A stretch of 64,000 nucleotides of DNA from an uncultured delta proteobacterium (GTDB taxonomy: Bacteria > Myxococcota > Myxococcia > SLRQ01). The stretch covers positions 1,728,001 to 1,792,000 of the forward strand of contig CAVSGM010000002.1 of the NCBI GenBank assembly GCA_963727485.1. Direction: 5' to 3'. The notes under the pieces are model-generated. The model ran no database searches. It had not been told where the DNA came from and saw only the letters and a program-made list of their open reading frames with translations. The translations under genes were made by a program, and so were the position numbers. This document shows positions 3,921-37,247 of the stretch, piece after piece (positions within the stretch are counted from its first letter, which is position 1; each line of letters opens with the position of its first letter).

Positions 3921-4655
3921 ACGGCCCCCTCGTCCTCCTCAAGACCGGCGACGCGGTGCCCCCGGTGCAGCGCGCCCGGGGCGACTTCGAGGTCCTCTTC
4001 CGCGAGGGCCTCGGCGTGGACCTCGAGCTGGTGCAGGTCCACAAGGGCGATCCCCTGCCGCTGGCCCGGGGCCTCGCCGGGGTGGTGGTCACCGGGTCCT
4101 CGGCCTCGGTCTACGATCCCGACGACTGGATCGCCGAGGCCGCGGGCTTCGTCCTCGGGGCCTCGAGCCTCGGGGTGCCCATCCTCGGGGTGTGCTTCGG
4201 CCACCAGCTGGTCGCCGACGCCCTCGGGGGCCAGGTGGTGAGGAGCCCCAAGGGCCGGGAGATGGGCACGGTGACCGTGGCGCTGACCGCCGAGGGCCGC
4301 GCCGACCCCCTCTTCGCGGGCCTCCCCGACCTCCTCCAGGTCCAGGAGAGCCACCAGGACGTGGTGGTGCGCCTGCCCCCCGGGGCGGTGCGCCTCGCCG
4401 GGAACCAGCACACCGAGGTCCAGGCCTTCGCCCTCGCAGACCACGTCCGGGCGGTGCAGTTCCACCCGGAGTTCGACGCCACCGTGAGCCGCGGCTACCT
4501 CGAGGCCCGGGCCGACCGGGTCGCCGCCGAGGCCGAGGCCCGGGGCGAGGATCCCGAGGCGGCGGTGGCGGCGGTGCGGGCGTCCATCCGCGACAGCGAC
4601 CACGGCCGCACCCTCCTCGGCAACTGGCTCGACGCCTTCGTCCGGGCTGGAGTAG
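3917..4655 (+). CDS. Class I glutamine amidotransferase (GMP synthase GATase-like); stop probably displaced by an indel
   Basis: ATGA overlap with the upstream gene; motifs GVCFGHQ, SHQD, QFHPE. The frame reads through into non-coding-looking sequence, and an out-of-frame TAG at 4653-4655 follows WLDAFVR. Confidence 0.85.
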
Positions 4656-4718
4656 CATCCTTTCGGGGGGTCGGCCGTCGATGTGGGCCAACGCTCCCGC
4701 CATCCCCTCGGAGGCCCC

Positions 4719-6389
4719 ATGCGCCCAGTCCTCGTCGCCCTCGTCCTCGCCGCCCTCCCCGGCCTCGCCCACGCCGCCCCGGTGGACGCGCCCTCCAGGG
4801 TGAGCGCGGTCACCGTCTACCAGGGCGCCGCCCGGGTCACCCGCACCGCCCGGGTCCACCTCCCGGCCGGCGAGGTGGAGGTCCGCCTCGGGGGCCTGTC
4901 CACCTACCTCGCCGACGACACGGTGAGGGTCACCGGCAAGGGCACCGCCCGGGCGCGGATCGAGGGGGTCACGGTGGACACCGAGACCCTGGCCAAGGCC
5001 ACCGACGCCGCCTACCAGGCCGCCGAGGACACCCTCCAGGGCCTCCAGGACCAGGACCGGGCGCTCACCGATCGCATCGCCGCCGCCCAGGCGCGTCTCG
5101 CCTTCGTCGACGCCTTCCAGAAGAGCTACGGGGGCAAGAGCGCCGCCGACCTCCCGGTCCGCAGCGTCGACCCCAAGAACCTCGGCCGCCTCGCCGACTT
5201 CGTCTCCACCGAGCACCAGAAGGCCGCGGCCACCATCCGCGCCGCCGAGGTCAAGCGCCGGGATCTCGCCCAGGCCATCCGCGCCGCCGCCGCCGAGGTG
5301 CGAAAGCTCCAGTCCAAGCGCGGGGTGGTGAGCAAGACCGCGGTGGTCACGGTGCGGGTCGACAAGCCCGGGCGCTTCGACCTCGAGCTCTCCTACCTGG
5401 TGGGCGGGGCCACCTGGACCCCGGTGTGGGACGCCCGCCTCGACCCGGTGAAGGACAAGGTGGCCCTCTCGCTCTACGGGAAGGTGACCCAGAACACCGG
5501 CGTCGACTGGCCGAAGGTGACCCTGGCGGTGTCCACCGCCCGGCCCGCCCGGGGGCTCTCGGTCCCCGAGCTCGATCCCCGCTACGTCACGAAGTACCAG
5601 CCGCCGCGACCCCTCTACCGGGAGCACACCCGCTACGCTCCGTCCGCCGCCCGGTCCCTGGCGCCCCTGGCCACCGCCGACGCGGCGTCCGACAAGGACG
5701 AGGGCCTCGCCGAGCAGAAGCGGATGGCCACCCTCCAGGTGGTGCAGGCCAAGGTCACCCAGGGCCTGCTCTCGGCGAGCTTCACCTCTCCCCACGCCAC
5801 CACCGTCGCCGGCAACGGCAAGGCCCAGCGGGCGATGCTGGCGAGCTGGAAGCTCGACGCCAAGGTCGACCGCCGGGCGGCGCCGCGCCAGGACCGGTCG
5901 GCCTACCTGGTGGCCACGGCGACCAACACCACCGGGGTGCCGCTGCTCCCCGGCCAGGCCAGCGTCTTCCTCGCAGGCGAGCTGGTGGGCCACACCCGCC
6001 TGGGCCCGGTGGCCGGGGGCGACGACCTCAAGCTGCCCTTCGGCGCCGACGACCGGGTGAAGATCGAGCGCCGGGTCCTCGAGCGCAAGCACGCCGAGAG
6101 CGGGCTCTTCTCCAAGGACGAGGTGATGCGCTACCACGTGCGGACCACGGTCACCAACCTCTACCCCCACGCGGTGAAGGTGACCCTCCTCGACCAGGTG
6201 CCCGTGTCCCGGGACCAGACCATCAAGGTCGAGGTCCTGGACAAGTCGACCCAGCCCACCAGCGAGGACAAGGATCGGCCCGGGGTGCGCCGCCACGCGC
6301 TGACCCTCCCGGCCCACGGGAAGGCCACGGTGGACCTCTGGTACCGGGTGAGCTGGCCCAAGGGTCAGCGGATCACCGGCCTCGACTAG
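4719..6389 (+). CDS. DUF4140/DUF4139 (mucoidy inhibitor MuiA-like) exported protein
   Basis: GGAGG then ATG 4719; signal peptide (..GLAHA); SRVSAVTVYQGAARVTR; coiled coil; LSYLVGGATWTPVWD; QNTGVDW; LPFGADD. Confidence 0.85.
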   Translation: MRPVLVALVLAALPGLAHAAPVDAPSRVSAVTVYQGAARVTRTARVHLPAGEVEVRLGGLSTYLADDTVRVTGKGTARARIEGVTVDTETLAKATDAAYQAAEDTLQGLQDQDRALTDRIAAAQARLAFVDAFQKSYGGKSAADLPVRSVDPKNLGRLADFVSTEHQKAAATIRAAEVKRRDLAQAIRAAAAEVRKLQSKRGVVSKTAVVTVRVDKPGRFDLELSYLVGGATWTPVWDARLDPVKDKVALSLYGKVTQNTGVDWPKVTLAVSTARPARGLSVPELDPRYVTKYQPPRPLYREHTRYAPSAARSLAPLATADAASDKDEGLAEQKRMATLQVVQAKVTQGLLSASFTSPHATTVAGNGKAQRAMLASWKLDAKVDRRAAPRQDRSAYLVATATNTTGVPLLPGQASVFLAGELVGHTRLGPVAGGDDLKLPFGADDRVKIERRVLERKHAESGLFSKDEVMRYHVRTTVTNLYPHAVKVTLLDQVPVSRDQTIKVEVLDKSTQPTSEDKDRPGVRRHALTLPAHGKATVDLWYRVSWPKGQRITGLD

Positions 6390-12520: not shown

Positions 12521-15077
12521 GTGGAAGAGCGCTTCGGGAAGTACCTCATCGAGAAACGGCTCGGGATCGGCGGCATGGCGGAGGTCTTCCGCGGTCGCCT
12601 CAAGGGCCTCGGCGGCTTCGACAAGCACGTCGTGGTCAAGCGCATCCTCCCCGAGCACCTCGATGACCCGGCGTTCGTCGAGATGTTCCTCGACGAGGCG
12701 CGGATCGCGGCGAACCTCTCGCACCCGAACATCATCCAGGTGTTCGAGATCGACGAGGTCGACGGGATCCCCTACATCGCCATGGAGTACGTGCGGGGGC
12801 CGACCCTCTCGCAGGTGCTCCGGGAGGCGCGGCGCCAGGGCAAGAGCCACCTGGGCCACCCGGCGCGGATCCTCTCGGCGGTCTGCGACGGCCTCCACTA
12901 CGCCCACAACGCCAAGGACCCCTCGGGGCGGCGGCTGGTCATCGTCCACCGGGACGTGACCCCCCAGAACATCCTCATCTCCCTCGAGGGCGTGCCCAAG
13001 ATCGTCGACTTCGGCGTCGCCAAGGCGAGGGGGCGCCTGGCCACCACCCAGGCGGGCATCCTCAAGGGCAAGCTGCGCTACATGCCCCCCGAGCAGCTCC
13101 AGTCGGGCCGGGAGCTCGACCACCGGGCCGACGTCTTCGCCGCCGGGGTGTGCCTCTACCGGGCCACCACCGGCCGCTTCCCCTTCGACGGGGCCAGCGA
13201 GCCCGAGGTGATGCACGCGGTCCTCGAGCGCCCCTGCCCGAGGCCCACCGAGGTGGTCCCCGGCTACCCCGAGGAGCTCGAGCGGGTGGTGCTCTGGGCC
13301 CTGGAGAAGGACCCCGAGGCCCGCTGCCCCACCGCCCGGGACCTCCACGAGGCCATCGAGGGCTTCCTCGCCAGCGGCGGCTACCCCCGGGGCACCCAGG
13401 CCGTCGCCGGGTGGCTCGGCGAGCTCTTCCCCGACTACGTCGAGCGGTCCTACTCGGGGACCTACGGCGTCCCCGGCACCCCGGTCTCGGGCTCCGGGTC
13501 GAGCGGCCTCGGCGGCCGGGGCGCCGGCGCCCAGGACCGACCCGGCACCCAGCTGGCGCCGCCACCGGCCCCCCTCGAGGCGGGCTTCGACATCGACGTC
13601 GAGCCCCCCGGGCTCGGCGCCCAGCGGCGTGGGGCCCTACGGCTCCCAGCCCAGCGGGGTGGGCGCCTTCGGTTCGGGGCCCAGCGGCGTGGGCGCCTTC
13701 GGCTCCGGGCCCAGCCAGGTGACCTCGGCCGGGACCTCCACGGCCTTCAAGGTGGCGGTGTCCCTGGGGGCGGTGGCCCTCCTGGTCGCGGTGGGCGTCA
13801 TCGGCTACCTCCTCGCCCGGCAGCCCGGCGCCCCGGCGCCGGCACCGGTGGTCGCGGCGCCGGCCAGGCCCGCCGGCCCCGACGCCAACGGCAACGCCAC
13901 CGCCTACCTCGACGAGGCGGAGCGCCTGGCCAAGGGCCATCGGTTCAAGAGCGCCCTGGCGCTCCTGGCCCAGGCCCGGCAGGCCAAGGCCACCGACGCC
14001 CAGGTGAACATCCGCCTCGCCCACCTCGAGGATCGGGTGGAGACCGACGCGGCCCTGGCCAGCGCCGAGCGCTACCTCTCCGCCGGGGACACCCAGGCCG
14101 CCATCGCCGCCGCCAAGGACGCCCTGGACCGCGACCCCGACGACGCCCGGGCCCTGGCCCTGCTGAAGAAGGCGAGCGCCGCCCGGGCCGGGGCCGCCGG
14201 GACGCCGGCGCTCCACGCCCGCAAGCCGGGGCGGCTCACCGTGACCTCGTCCCCCGAGGGGGCCATGGTCTACGTCGACGACGTCCCCGTGGGCCACACC
14301 CCCCTCCACGGCCACGGCGTCGATCCCGGGCGGCACGCCCTGGAGATCCGGCTGCGCGGCTACCGGACCGAGACCCGCCACCTCCGGGTGCGGGCCGGGC
14401 GCCGGACCTCGCTGCGGGTCCACCTGGCCGAGGGGGTGAAGCATCATCTCGCCGCCTCCGAGGTGGCCGAGGCCAGCCAGCCCGCGGCGCCCTCGCCCGC
14501 GGCCCCCGCCGACCCGGCGTCGCCGTCCAAGACGCCCTCGAAGGGTGCCGGGGCGGCCCTGGCGGGGGCGTCCCCGGCGTCGGGGTCCACCGCCAAGACC
14601 GTGGCCGCCCACGCGAGCCCCCCGGCCCCCAAGGCCGCGCCCCCGAAGGCCGCGCCCCCGAAGGCCGCGCCCCCGCCGCCCGCCGCGCCGGCGGTGAAGG
14701 TGGCCGCGGCGACGCCGGCCCCGTCCCCCGCGCCCGCCGGGCCGACCCCGGCCCACCCCCTGGCCCCGCGGCTCCCGAGCCTCTTCCACGCCCGGAGCAT
14801 GCAGGACCTCGCCCGGGCGGTGGGCGCGGTGGAGAGCGAGGCGGTGAAGCGCGCCGGGGTCCCCGGCCCGGTGGCCCGGAAGGTCGGGGGCCCCCTGCTC
14901 CATGCCCTGGTCCGCAGCTACTCACCGGGGACCACCACCGTCCTCTATCCCAAGGCCATGTACTACCTCGTCGTCCACGAGCTGGCCCGGGGGACCGACG
15001 TGGCCACCATCGGCGAGGACCTCAAGCGCCACCACTTCAGCGGCGCGTTCCAGGCCCACCCCGACCCGGCGCGGTGA
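12521..15077 (+). CDS. Transmembrane Hanks-type Ser/Thr protein kinase with TPR-like and PEGA domains (frameshift at about 13605-13611)
   Basis: GIGGMAEV, VVVKRI, HRDVTPQN, DFG, YMPPEQ in frame 12521. Continues in frame 13629..15077 with a TM helix and PEGA pattern (LTVTSSPEGAMVYVDDVPVGHTPL...PGRH...GY). The break is in a C6G3 run. Confidence 0.88.
13611..13715 (+). repeat. 30-bp tandem coding repeat (3.5 copies; GS.PSGVG.F/Y)
   Basis: Units start at 13611, 13641, 13671 and 13701 (gg.tc....cccagcgg.gtggg..cct.c). Confidence 0.85.
14631..14675 (+). repeat. 15-bp tandem coding repeat x3 (KAAPP)
   Basis: aaggccgcgcccccg, three exact copies. Confidence 0.9.
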
Positions 15078-18119: not shown

Positions 18120-18866
18120 ATGAAGGGCGAGGACACGCTGGTGGGCCGGGTGGCGCTGGTCACCGGGGCGAGCCGGGGCATCGGCCACTCGGTGGCGGCG
18201 AGGCTGGCGGCGGCGGGGATGCAGGTCGCCGTGGGCTACCACCGCTCCCACGATGCCGCCGAGGCCCTCTGCGCCCGGATCGTCGCCGACGGTGGCGAGG
18301 CGGTGGCCGTCGGCGGCGACGTCGCCGACCCCGAGGCCGCGGTGAGCCTGGTCGACGCCGCCGAGGACCGGCTCGGTCCCGTGGACGTCCTGGTCTCCAA
18401 CGCCGGCCGCGCCGAGCGCCGGACCCTCGAGGACCTCGACGTCGAGACCTGGGACCGGACGATGGCCGAGCACCTGCGCGCCGCCTTCGTCCTGGCGCAG
18501 CGGGTGGTCCCGGGGATGCGCGAGAGGGGCTTCGGCCGCATCGTCCTCATGGGCTCGGTGGCCGCCGACACCGGCGGGATCGTCGGCCCCCACTACACCG
18601 CGGCCAAGGCGGCCCTGGTGGGCCTGATGCACGCGCTGGCCGCCGACACCGCCGCCGACGGGATCACCGTGAACCTGGTGGCCCCGGCCCTGGTGGACAC
18701 CGCGGCCCTGCGCACCCTCGGCGACCGGGCGGCCCTGGCGGCGAGGCTCCCGGTGGGGCGCCTGGGGACCCCCGAGGAGGTCGCCGAGGTGGTGGCGACC
18801 CTCTGCGAGAGCGGCTTCGTGACCGGTCAGACGATCCACGTCGACGGCGGCCTGCGGTTCACGTGA
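18120..18866 (+). CDS. Short-chain dehydrogenase/reductase (FabG-like)
   Basis: TGASRGIG, SNAG, YTAAK, VTGQTIHVDGG (alternative GTG 18117). Confidence 0.93.
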   Translation: MKGEDTLVGRVALVTGASRGIGHSVAARLAAAGMQVAVGYHRSHDAAEALCARIVADGGEAVAVGGDVADPEAAVSLVDAAEDRLGPVDVLVSNAGRAERRTLEDLDVETWDRTMAEHLRAAFVLAQRVVPGMRERGFGRIVLMGSVAADTGGIVGPHYTAAKAALVGLMHALAADTAADGITVNLVAPALVDTAALRTLGDRAALAARLPVGRLGTPEEVAEVVATLCESGFVTGQTIHVDGGLRFT

Positions 18867-19108
18867 GGGTGGGCCTCGGGGCCGGCGCCGCCGTCGCGTT
18901 CCCAATCCTGCAGGCCACCCTTGGCCAGGCCCTCCTGGTCGCCGGCCTGGCCGTGGCCCTCCTCGCGGCCGCGACGTTTCTGGTTGCCGGAATCGTGATC
19001 CGGACCTGGCTCATCCGGGGGACGACCCAGGACCGTCGTCAGCTCACCCGGTTCGTCGAGGACGTGCTCCGGGCCCGCCCCGTCGAGGGGCTCCCCGGAC
19101 CCCTCTGA
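18863..19108 (+). CDS. Small hypothetical membrane protein
   Basis: GTGA overlap with the SDR gene; one long hydrophobic stretch. Confidence 0.45.
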   Translation: MRVGLGAGAAVAFPILQATLGQALLVAGLAVALLAAATFLVAGIVIRTWLIRGTTQDRRQLTRFVEDVLRARPVEGLPGPL

Positions 19109-19198
19109 TTGCATCACGCTGTATCCCACTGGGGCAGAATGTCCCAGCGGGCCCGGTGTGAGTCACAACGTATCCCAGTGTGACTCACAAGAGGGGTC
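19097..19198 (+). repeat. Structured intergenic repeat element, copy A (candidate ncRNA, REP or MITE-like)
   Basis: Terminal 9-bp IR gacccctct/agaggggtc; hairpins ctggggca-gaa-tgtcccag and tgtgagtcaca-N11-tgtgactcaca; homologous to 37165-37247. Confidence 0.75.
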
Positions 19199-19232: not shown

Positions 19233-20591
19233 TCAGCCCCCCGCCACCTTGGGCAGCCGCTCGAGCGCCGCCTCGATGGCCGCCTCGGGGTAGGCGTAGT
19301 CCTCGAGGTCGCCGGCGAAGTACCGGTCGTAGGCCGCCATGTCGAAGTGCCCGTGGCCCGAGAGGTTGAAGAAGATGGTCTTGGGCTCGCCGGTCTGCTT
19401 GCAGCGCAGGGCCTCGTCGATGGCGGCGCGCACCGCGTGGTCGGCCTCCGGCGCGGGGATGATGCCCTCGGTCCGGGCGAAGGTGACCCCGGCCTCGAAG
19501 GTGGCCAGCTGGGGCAGGGCCACCGCCTCGATGAGGCCCTCGTGGTGGAGCTGGGAGACCAGCGGCGAGTCGCCGTGGTAGCGCAGGCCGCCGGCGTGGA
19601 TGCCCGGGGGCACGAAGTCGTGGCCCAAGGTGTACATCTGCATCATCGGGGTGAGCCCGGCGGTGTCGCCGAAGTCGTAGGCGTAGTGGCCCCGGGTCAG
19701 CGTGGGGCAGCTCGACGGCTCGGCGGCGACGATGCGCACCGCCTTGCCCGCGGCCTTGTCGGCGAAGAAGGGGAAGGTGGCCCCGCCGAAGTTGGAGCCG
19801 CCGCCGCAGCAGGCGATGACCACGTCGGGGTAGTCGCCGACCTTCTCGAACTGCTTCTTGGCCTCGAGGCCGATGACGGTCTGGTGCAGCAGCACATGGT
19901 TCAGGACCGAGCCCAGCGCGTAGTTGGTGTCGTCGCGGCCCGCGGCCTCCTCCACCGCCTCGGAGATGGCGATGCCCAGCGACCCCGGCGAGTCGGGGTC
20001 ACCGGCGAGGATCGCTCGGCCGGCCTCGGTCTGGTCGGTGGGGCTGGCGAAGACCTCGGCGCCAAAGGTCTGCATCATCGAGCGCCGGAAGGGCTTCTGC
20101 TCGTAGCTCACCTTCACCATGTACACGCGCACCGTCAGGCCGAAGAGGCGCGCGGCGAAGGCGAGCGAGCTGCCCCACTGGCCGGCGCCGGTCTCGGTGG
20201 ACAGCCGCTTGATGCCCGCCTCGGCGTTGTAGAAGGCCTGGGGCACCGAGGTGTTGGGCTTGTGGGAGCCCGGGGGCGAGACCCCCTCGTACTTGTAGTA
20301 GATCTTCGCCGGGGTCCCGAGGAAGGCCTCCAGGCGGTGGGCCCGGTACAGCGGCGTCGGGCGCCACAGCCGGTAGGCCTCGCGCACCGCCTCGGGGATG
20401 GCGATCCACCGCTCGGCGCTCACCTCCTGCTCGATGAGCGACATCGGGAAGATGGCCGCGAGGGCCTCGGGACCGATGGGCTTTCCATCGGGTCCCAGCG
20501 GGGGTGCCGGAGGGTTCGGCAGGTCCGCCACCACGTTGTACCAGTGGGTGGGGATCTCGGACTCGTCGAGGACGATCTTGGTCTCGGGCAT
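19233..20591 (-). CDS. trpB2: TrpB-like PLP-dependent enzyme (TrpB2)
   Basis: ATG 20591; [22 protein letters not shown] (PLP Lys), [27 protein letters not shown]. Confidence 0.95.
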
Positions 20592-20775
20592 GGTGCGTCT
20601 CCTGTCGAGCAACGGGCTCGAACCGCCGTGACCATGCGCGCCCCGCCGGGCACGATAGCAGACTCGCGCCCGATTCGCTTGCGGCGCCGGCACCGCCCCT
20701 GTCCTAATGTCCCACCGACGGGTACCGGCCGGGCGGCGGCCGGGGCCCCAGGGCACGACACGCATGGAGGACGAG

Positions 20776-21420
20776 ATGCACATCGGCATCCTCGGATCGG
20801 GAGACGTGGGCCGGACCCTGGGCGCGGGCCTGGCCCGCCACGGCCACGAGGTGATGCTCGGCACCCGGGACCCGTCGGCGAAGCGGATCCGCGAGTGGGT
20901 GAAGGAGACGGGCCACTCGGTGCGCGCCGGGACCTTCGCCGAGGCCGCGCAGTTCGCGCGCCTGGCGATCCTGGCCACCGCCTGGAGCGGCACCGGCCAC
21001 GCCCTGGAGCTCGCCGGCAAGGGGCACCTGAAGGACAACGTGGTCCTCGACGTCACCAACCCCCTGGTCTTCGGCGACGGGGCACCGACCCTGGCGCTCG
21101 GGTGCACCGACTCCGGCGGCGAGCAGGTGCAGCGGTGGCTCCCCGACGCCCACGTGGTCAAGGCCCTGAACATCGTGGGCCACGCCCACATGGTCCACCC
21201 CGACTTCCCCGGCGGGCCCCCGGACATGTTCCTCTGTGGGAACGACCCCGAGGCCAAGGCCCAGGTGGCCGGGCTGTTGGAGACCCTGGGGTGGCCGGTG
21301 GTCGACCTCGGGGGCATCGAGATGAGCCGCTACCTCGAGCCCATGGCCATGGTCTGGATCACCCACGCGATCCGCACCGGCGGCGGGAACCACGCCTTCA
21401 AGCTGCTGCGCAAGTCCTAG
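20776..21420 (+). CDS. NADP oxidoreductase, F420-dependent family (dinucleotide-binding)
   Basis: GGAGG then [34 protein letters not shown]. Confidence 0.88.
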
Positions 21421-31688: not shown

Positions 31689-31718
31689 GCGCCCCGCCAG
31701 ACCCGAGAGAGGAAGACC

Positions 31719-32261
31719 ATGGCGAAAAAGGGAGGCCAGCACCGGTTCGCCGCGCGCAAGCGTGAGCAGGACCGAAAGGCCCGCGCCGAAAAGAAGCGAC
31801 AGCGGAAGGCCGAGCGCCAGGCCGCCAAGGCCGACGGCGTCAGCGACGGCACCGACCCCGAGCTCGAGGGCATCGTCCCCGGGCCCCAGCCCAAGGCCGT
31901 GATCGACGCCGCCGAGGTCCAGGCCGCGGTGGAGCGGGCCATGAACCCCGGCGCCATCGCCGCCGAGGCGCGGCCCATGTCCCCGGCCAAGGCCGCGGCC
32001 TCGCGGCTCTTCGTGGGCAACCTCGACCGGGACACCAGCGCCAAGGGCCTCCGGGAGCACTTCGCCGGCTCCGGCCACGAGGTGGTCGAGGCCGACGTGG
32101 TCACCGACCGGATGAGCGGCCAGTCCCGGGGCTTCGCCTTCGTCGACATGGAGAGCCCCGAGGCCGCCAGGCAGGCCGTCGACGCCCTCGACGGCGTCAA
32201 CCTCGACGGCCGGCCCCTGCGCGTCCGACTCGCCAGCGATCGGCCGCCCGCGCGGCACTGA
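31719..32261 (+). CDS. RRM (RNP-1) RNA-binding protein with basic N-terminal extension
   Basis: RNP2 LFVGNL, RNP1 [16 protein letters not shown]. Confidence 0.92.
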
Positions 32262-37164: not shown

Positions 37165-37247
37165 GGACCCCTCTGAACGCGTCACAACGTATCCCATTGG
37201 GGCGATTCGCCCCAACGTATCCCAACGTGATGCATTCGACGGGGCCC
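37165..37247 (+). repeat. Structured intergenic repeat element, copy B
   Basis: Shares ggacccctctga..gc.tcac...gtatccca.tggggc with copy A; hairpin ttggggcg-att-cgccccaa; two caacgtatccca direct repeats; outer stem gaacgcgtcac/gtgatgcattc. Confidence 0.75.

Follow-up and report, generated by a model that had tools for sequence, protein, structure and literature searches.

A nested palindromic repeat in an uncultured high-GC bacterium likely belongs to a new orphan REP/MITE-like family

A Palindromic Element Lies between Convergent Genes

The DNA analyzed here is a stretch of 64,000 nucleotides (the window) from an uncultured bacterium whose genome is represented by a 5.55-Mb assembly of 14 contigs, with a G+C content of 73% and a completeness of 93%. 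Because many open reading frames (ORFs) are interrupted in this assembly, coding strands were called by codon-position GC periodicity. The element of interest, termed copy A, had originally been predicted to lie between convergent genes and to comprise a 9-bp terminal inverted repeat, two GTATCCCA motifs, an inner hairpin, and an extra 11-bp stem. All of these structural features can be read directly in the sequence, and the convergent arrangement is confirmed by an 81-codon ORF on the + strand that faces a PALP gene on the − strand. The locus is organized as follows.

18863 to 19108, + strand: 81-codon ORF, located behind an SDR gene; GC by codon position 0.80/0.52/0.89; no Pfam match
19098 to 19198, + strand: copy A, whole element; chimeric and the most diverged member of its family; 68.9 bits against model R1 (see below)
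19098 to 19106, + strand: left terminal inverted repeat GACCCCTCT; contains the start of the ORF stop codon (19106 to 19108)
19121 to 19128, + strand: first GTATCCCA motif, unpaired in the predicted fold
19129 to 19147, + strand: inner hairpin, CTGGGGCA-gaa-TGTCCCAG
19157 to 19189, + strand: second hairpin, with an 11-bp stem TGTGAGTCACA/TGTGACTCACA (19157 to 19167 with 19179 to 19189) and an 11-nt loop ACGTATCCCAG
19170 to 19177, + strand: second GTATCCCA motif, inside the loop of the second hairpin
19190 to 19198, + strand: right terminal inverted repeat AGAGGGGTC, which pairs with GACCCCTCT over 9 bp
19233 to 21317, − strand: gene for a PALP pyridoxal-phosphate-dependent enzyme, convergent and downstream of copy A

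The ORF ends in the left repeat of copy A, which holds its last codons and its stop codon, TGA. The predicted fold of copy A is unusually stable, with z scores of −4.38 for DNA and −4.93 for RNA, and none of 200 shuffled sequences was equally stable. Likewise, the GTATCCCA motif matches four times in the window where 0.24 matches are expected, a number reached by none of 100 shuffled sequences. Two of these matches reside in a second element, copy B, that aligns with copy A without gaps over the first 50 nucleotides, as had been predicted, with 36 of the 50 positions identical. Its features are listed below.

37166 to 37245, + strand: copy B; canonical core, with outer arms and flanks opposite in polarity to those of the other copies
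37189 to 37196 and 37217 to 37224, + strand: GTATCCCA motifs
37197 to 37215, + strand: inner hairpin, TTGGGGCG-att-CGCCCCAA

Copies A and B Belong to a Dispersed Repeat Family

The claim that this is a dispersed repeat is borne out by a genome-wide motif search, which yielded a family of 12 core-bearing copies plus three related units. The core common to the 12 copies reads GT[AC]TCCCA-YTGGGGC...CCCAR. The related units, all on contig C3 (204552 to 204664, 210869 to 210967, and 210955 to 211067), share an arm with the copies and carry a single GTATCCCA motif each. Across the genome this motif occurs 39 times, with 26 of the occurrences inside repeat copies. A covariance model built from the alignment of the 12 copies (model R1) recovered these copies at 68.9 to 133.9 bits and one related unit at 38.6 bits, with no other match in the genome. 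Searches of the genome with loosened motif patterns or with the element termini uncovered no further convincing copy.

The canonical unit spans about 80 to 90 nucleotides and is built as a nested palindrome. Its outer stem is an imperfect pairing of 19 bp, GACCCGTCGAACGCGTCAC with GTGACGCGTTCAGAGGGGT, that is closed by GTCAC/GTGAC, and the two 19-nt arms are separated by a spacer of 50 to 70 nucleotides. Within this stem lies an 11x11 internal loop that presents the decamer ACGTATCCCA in the 5' to 3' direction on both strands, followed by the inner hairpin TTGGGGC-aatcc-GCCCCAA. Behind the canonical inner hairpin comes a second GC hairpin that is less conserved. The fold of a canonical copy has a z score of −5.04. 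Depending on the copy, one, two, or three tandem decamers occupy the 3' loop. In the related units and in the second hairpin of copy A, GTATCCCA is displayed in a plain hairpin loop that is again closed by GTCAC/GTGAC.

Subsets of copies remain similar beyond the canonical unit, over roughly 30 to 90 nucleotides upstream and 40 to 150 nucleotides downstream, and therefore the unit is best described as part of a mosaic repeated block of about 165 to 190 nucleotides. Three copies have a further common extension of about 100 nucleotides. Over the core, nine canonical copies are 86 to 98% identical to each other, and copy B and the copy at C3:578499 are 78 to 86% identical to those nine.

Copy A is more distant, with only 61 to 71% identity to the other copies over the core. 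Its left part resembles the left half of a canonical unit, and positions 19180 to 19198, which include an arm of the second stem and the right terminus, match, in reverse complement, the left end of the related unit at C3:204552 to 204664 (subfamily 2). Copy A is thus a chimera and the most diverged member of the family. Copy B matches model R1 at 89.2 bits on the + strand and also at 47.9 bits on the − strand, compared with no more than 32.3 bits on the reverse strand for the other copies; its core is flipped relative to its own arms and flanks. Separately, an isolated 17-nt look-alike of the copy A stretch 'CATCACGCTGT.TCCC' is present at C1:325282 to 325298 and may be a relic or a chance resemblance.

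The two inverted subfamily-2 units on contig C3 (204552 to 204664 and 210955 to 211067) were considered as possible ends of a transposon. However, the segment between them carries genes for YhbY, an HflX-like GTPase, ProB, and an aldehyde dehydrogenase, and such housekeeping genes indicate that the segment is not a transposon. Another repetitive region of the same contig (486216 to 498621) holds at least four tandem copies of a segment of about 1.45 kb, about 2.9 kb apart and 92 to 95% identical.

The Family Was Found in a Single Genome

BLAST searches detected the family in none of 40 relatives, and a search with model R1 was likewise negative across 150 other genomes of the class, four of them from the same taxonomic family. 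Exact-pattern scans produced one match among genome contigs and seven among metagenome contigs, all of them look-alikes with unrelated flanks. Nothing related was found among plasmids, phages, and viral contigs, where a scan with a 16-nt piece returned five unrelated matches. Among the genomes compared, the family is therefore found only in this uncultured high-GC bacterium.

The element had also been described as unannotated, a status that held when the window was compared with Rfam: no family reached its gathering score. The best match below threshold, RT-5, scored 21.9 bits against a cut-off of 45.7 bits with an E value of 1.8, and this identity was rejected as a chance match. Among the literature matches listed, there was no description of the motif or of a Myxococcus REP family. 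The decamers appeared there only in unrelated eukaryotic and viral texts, and the 15-mer in none of the texts listed.

Loop Decamers Are Better Conserved than the Stems

Across the family, 85.7% of the cells at paired alignment positions can pair, compared with 33 to 47% in slid controls, and double-sided changes are seen in 8 of 31 base pairs. The original prediction had taken compensatory changes as a sign of selection on structure, and this claim proved weaker than stated. The same count of double-sided changes was reached in 16 of 500 shuffles, and non-pairs of the two kinds are balanced (13 G-U versus 17 A-C), such that neither RNA strand is favored. Pairing and double changes of this sort would likewise be expected from a palindrome that is decaying and comprises subfamilies.

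The differences between copies A and B deserve the same caution. The predicted changes in the inner hairpin are all real, namely C-G to T-A at the outer end, A-T to G-C at the pair that closes the loop, and G-T to G-C. However, at the position closing the loop, 8 of the 10 other copies have an A/C mismatch, and only C3:219160 (A-U) and C3:578499 (G-C) have a pair. For the family as a whole, this leaves a single informative double change out of the two.

In contrast to the stems, the unpaired decamers are nearly invariant. Mean pairwise identity is 0.94 to 1.00 for the decamers, 0.78 to 0.92 for the outer stems, and 0.57 to 0.68 for the downstream hairpin, and hence the unpaired GTATCCCA motif, singled out from the beginning as a conserved feature, is indeed the best-conserved part of the element. 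This pattern points either to sequence-specific recognition of the loops or to very recent spread of the family, and the data fit both.

Signs of Copying, Gain, or Loss

An additional ACGTCTCCCA decamer, together with a C in column 94 of the alignment, is common to five copies that lie at unlinked positions in the genome. A derived decamer shared by unlinked copies is the pattern that a variant master copy would be expected to leave behind.

A second sign comes from contig C12 (32 kb), which resembles C3:544117 to 573325 with 90 to 99.7% identity and may represent either a version of that stretch from another strain or a duplicate of it. Between the same two convergent genes, C12 carries about 165 to 175 extra nucleotides that include an element (13601 to 13775), where C3 has only a short spacer (555061 to 555069). 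The difference may reflect a gain of the element in C12 or a deletion in C3. Similar relationships, again at 90 to 99.7% identity, connect the small contigs C12, C6, C10, C14, C8, C13, and C9 with stretches in C3, C1, C2, and C4, for example C6 with C1:622085 to 640836 and C10 with C1:410220 to 424425. Strain variants or alternative haplotypes thus seem to be present in the assembly, and this bears on the copy counts given above.

Relatives offer a further comparison. The stop codons of aroC and an epimerase gene are about 10 nucleotides apart in one relative (G003), compared with 207 nucleotides here, where the gap is filled by the element. For copy A, the PALP gene was recognized in only one relative (G001), and synteny is lost there.

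Four DNA sequencing runs, which yielded only short, low-depth contigs, provided no transposition intermediate or empty-site read. No contig joints from these runs fell at element boundaries, either at copy A or at three or four elements in C3:203500 to 220500. One 201-nt contig from these runs covers positions 18966 to 19166 of the window with a single difference. Direct repeats flanking the 12 copies were no better than those of random windows in any case (best P = 0.05), with element ends that are not sharply defined. The proposed comparison of occupied and empty sites gave a presence/absence difference at the C12/C3 site but no target-site duplication above random. Together, the subfamily pattern and this one polymorphic site suggest that the family is, or has been, mobile.

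The Copies Reside behind Gene 3' Ends

All 12 copies are located directly behind the 3' end of at least one gene, with nine in convergent, three in co-directional, and none in divergent arrangement. About 690 junctions in the genome are convergent, and the placement of 9 of the 12 copies at such sites has a probability of about 1e-6 to 6e-6, assuming 4500 to 5500 junctions in total. At the three co-directional sites, GTATCCCA lies on the strand that is sense with respect to the upstream gene. The convergent sites carry no orientation information, and therefore these three sites alone speak to strand. The flanking genes are mutually unrelated and include those for GGT, chorismate synthase (aroC), an epimerase, KUP, NFACT, GH15, a multicopper oxidase, TetR, SDR, and PALP, among others.

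One possibility is that the repeat is an mRNA 3'-end element selected by the host, which could serve as a terminator without a U tract, possibly a bidirectional one, or as a block to 3' exonucleases, with the loop decamers bound by a protein that tunes mRNA stability. The placement behind 3' ends, the consistent sense orientation at the co-directional sites, the strong fold on both strands, and the high degree of pairing with some double changes would all suit such a role, as would loops that are better conserved than stems. However, the absence of the family from 150 other genomes gives no sign of a conserved host function, the flanking genes have no function in common, and copies A and B lack a T tail. 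In addition, the balance of G-U and A-C non-pairs, the flipped core of copy B, and the polymorphic C12/C3 site are not what this explanation would lead one to expect, and the argument from orientation is reduced to three sites. We therefore regard a host-selected RNA element as unlikely, although worth keeping in mind.

The copies are also unevenly distributed along the genome. Eight gaps between neighboring copies are shorter than 110 kb, compared with 2.9 expected (P = 0.0008). Five of the six copies on contig C2 fall within 1.566 to 1.829 Mb, and five loci on C3 fall within 92 to 219 kb. Such clustering, in combination with nearly invariant decamers, might indicate double-stranded DNA sites, formed either by direct GTATCCCA repeats 28 bp apart or by the GTCAC...GTGAC arms, for a host protein that organizes or marks a chromosomal region. 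We consider this function quite improbable, because the orientation of the copies along the genome is mixed, the number of decamers varies from one to three, the palindromic stems would be superfluous, and the family is absent from relatives. Moreover, the C2 cluster sits on one side of dnaA (C2:1412263), GC skew is too noisy for placing an origin or terminus, and local hopping of a mobile repeat would explain the clustering equally well. A DnaA box for the decamer, matS or CRP-type sites for the arms, and Tn3-family repeats for the ends were also considered and set aside, because key positions or spacings seem not to fit.

Search for a Partner Enzyme, Promoter, or RNA Gene

The gene content of the window, which includes no transposase or recombinase gene, agrees with the earlier statement that no cognate enzyme is encoded there. 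Elsewhere in the genome, there are six paralogous Y1_Tnp genes (PF01797, HUH, 'HVHLLVE') that share a conserved N-terminal stretch, LRTWGGRRRGAGRKP. Their locations are given below.

C3:18521 to 18844: Y1_Tnp gene
C2:718822 to 719061: Y1_Tnp gene
C1:606278 to 606559: Y1_Tnp gene
C1:455989 to 456258: Y1_Tnp gene
C1:746317 to 746544: Y1_Tnp gene
C3:305747 to 305923: Y1_Tnp gene

All six are far from every copy of the repeat, and their flanks contain no element motif, no match to model R1 above 16.6 bits, no shared repeat, and no recognizable REP. The suggestion that a RAYT/TnpA gene might be flanked by copies was thus not borne out at any of the six loci. A parent insertion sequence (IS) was sought as well: the element termini, with up to four mismatches, occur only in the known copies, and repeats of at least 300 bp from a self-comparison of the genome hold no copy. 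With a completeness of 93%, the assembly could lack a partner gene.

Another candidate in the original prediction was a small RNA (sRNA) bound by a CsrA-like protein, because the reverse strand displays GGA triplets in its loops. A multicopy, trans-acting sRNA could for example act as a sponge for such a protein, and the reverse strand does carry two GGGAUAC sequences, with GGAUU in its apical loop. However, no CsrA gene (PF02599) was matched in the 93%-complete genome, and neither copy A nor copy B has a sigma-70-like promoter or a T-tail terminator. A rho-independent terminator was rejected at both copies because no T/U tract follows the GC hairpin. Given also that Rfam offers no family at threshold (RT-5 being the best, as noted above) and that several copies abut or overlap stop codons, we consider an sRNA very improbable and the least likely of the rival explanations.

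Resemblance to Known Repeats

The REPIN report of Bertels & Rainey (2011, PMC3116915) describes hairpin-forming doublets with extragenic placement and compensatory changes, and the repeats described herein are similar in being short, non-coding, and extragenic, in having inverted arms around a spacer that would form a long hairpin in single-stranded DNA or mRNA, in showing some compensatory changes, and in being inherited within one lineage. Random extragenic spread is reported for REPINs (PMC3116915), whereas the copies here are clustered and are all intergenic or at gene ends. Other differences are that the element is not found beside any of the six Y1_Tnp genes, that there are about 15 copies rather than the hundreds found for classic REPINs, and that the conserved part is the loop decamer plus the inner hairpin, not the arms. 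The arms also lack a GTAG-type tag, which is typical of REPs.

Bacterial MITEs, such as Correia/NEMIS elements of Neisseria and ERIC/IRU elements of enterobacteria, are non-coding sequences of 100 to 200 bp with terminal inverted repeats. They lie near gene ends, sometimes supplying stop or C-terminal codons, and they form subfamilies, chimeras, and presence/absence differences. The present family has counterparts to each of these properties, including terminal inverted repeats, small size, the lack of an ORF, gene-end placement with stop and C-terminal codons supplied, subfamilies, chimeras, and a presence/absence difference. It differs from MITEs in that no target-site duplication is detectable and the ends are not sharply defined, in that no parent IS with matching ends is present in the 93%-complete genome, and in the tandem decamer expansions inside the loop. 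A third point of reference is the BIME, a mosaic REP cluster of E. coli in which REPs alternate in arrays. The modular mosaic build is similar, with extra hairpin modules on either side, the extension of about 100 nucleotides in three copies, and arm types recombined in copies A and B. In contrast to BIMEs, there is a single unit per site, and the sequence is unrelated. Given the lack of a RAYT link, of a detected target duplication, and of a parent IS, we liken the family to REPINs and MITEs rather than filing it as either.

Of the three candidates offered by the original prediction, a REP/MITE-like repeat fits best with the restriction to one lineage, the placement at 3' ends, the unrelated flanking genes, the indel that marks a subfamily, and the presence/absence difference. 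The family is likely a new orphan family of REP/MITE-like repeats and probably not an RNA gene. With moderate confidence, we favor the explanation that a nested palindrome without coding capacity, confined to this lineage and located at gene 3' ends, originated and multiplied as a mobile element of the non-autonomous REP/REPIN/MITE-like type, and that copy A is one of its diverged, chimeric members. The element is of an ordinary kind, with a loop motif that is unusually invariant.

We infer that the element is copied to new sites and that the form recognized in this process would be a folded single strand, either a transcript or DNA exposed during replication. In this form, both strands of the loop, being identical, would provide a two-fold symmetric, sequence-specific site for a putative dimeric protein resembling a transposase or nuclease. 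Copies might survive mainly between convergent genes because insertion there would be harmless, and at such sites the GC-rich rod may incidentally block read-through or protect mRNA 3' ends.

A more specific proposal is that the GTATCCCA decamers, which are always unpaired in a loop closed by GTCAC/GTGAC and are arranged with two-fold symmetry in the canonical unit, are the recognition site of a putative lineage-specific enzyme other than a RAYT or of a protein that binds RNA or single-stranded DNA. We hold this proposal to be rather doubtful. If it is true, the family would represent a new system of repeat plus partner, and decamer expansion and core flipping would be by-products of its mechanism.

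The repeat adds a well-delimited orphan family to the bacterial palindromic intergenic repeats, from a poorly sampled lineage of uncultured, high-GC organisms. Three of its features are unusual, namely a conserved unpaired loop motif rather than conserved arms, a variable number of tandem decamers, and one copy with a flipped core. With these features, the family lends itself to the question of which protein reads such folded repeats.

Effects on Gene Ends and Annotation

At least two genes take their stop codon or final codons from the element. One case is the 81-codon ORF described above, and another is aroC, whose last ~8 codons and stop codon lie in the extension common to three copies (C2:1828748 to 1829014). 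Element copies also account for several long spacers between convergent genes and for altered 3' ends of genes. Because the copies fill spacers and alter gene ends in this manner, they should be masked or annotated as repeats, not called as sRNA genes.

Two minor observations concern individual genes. A KUP-domain frame at C3:91093 to 93777 stays open through an element copy and continues for about 640 nucleotides past the motif, which reflects either an assembly frameshift or an extended C terminus. In the window itself, an ORF of 190 residues (31689 to 32258) matches RRM_1, an RNA-recognition motif of eukaryotic type, with E = 3e-17.
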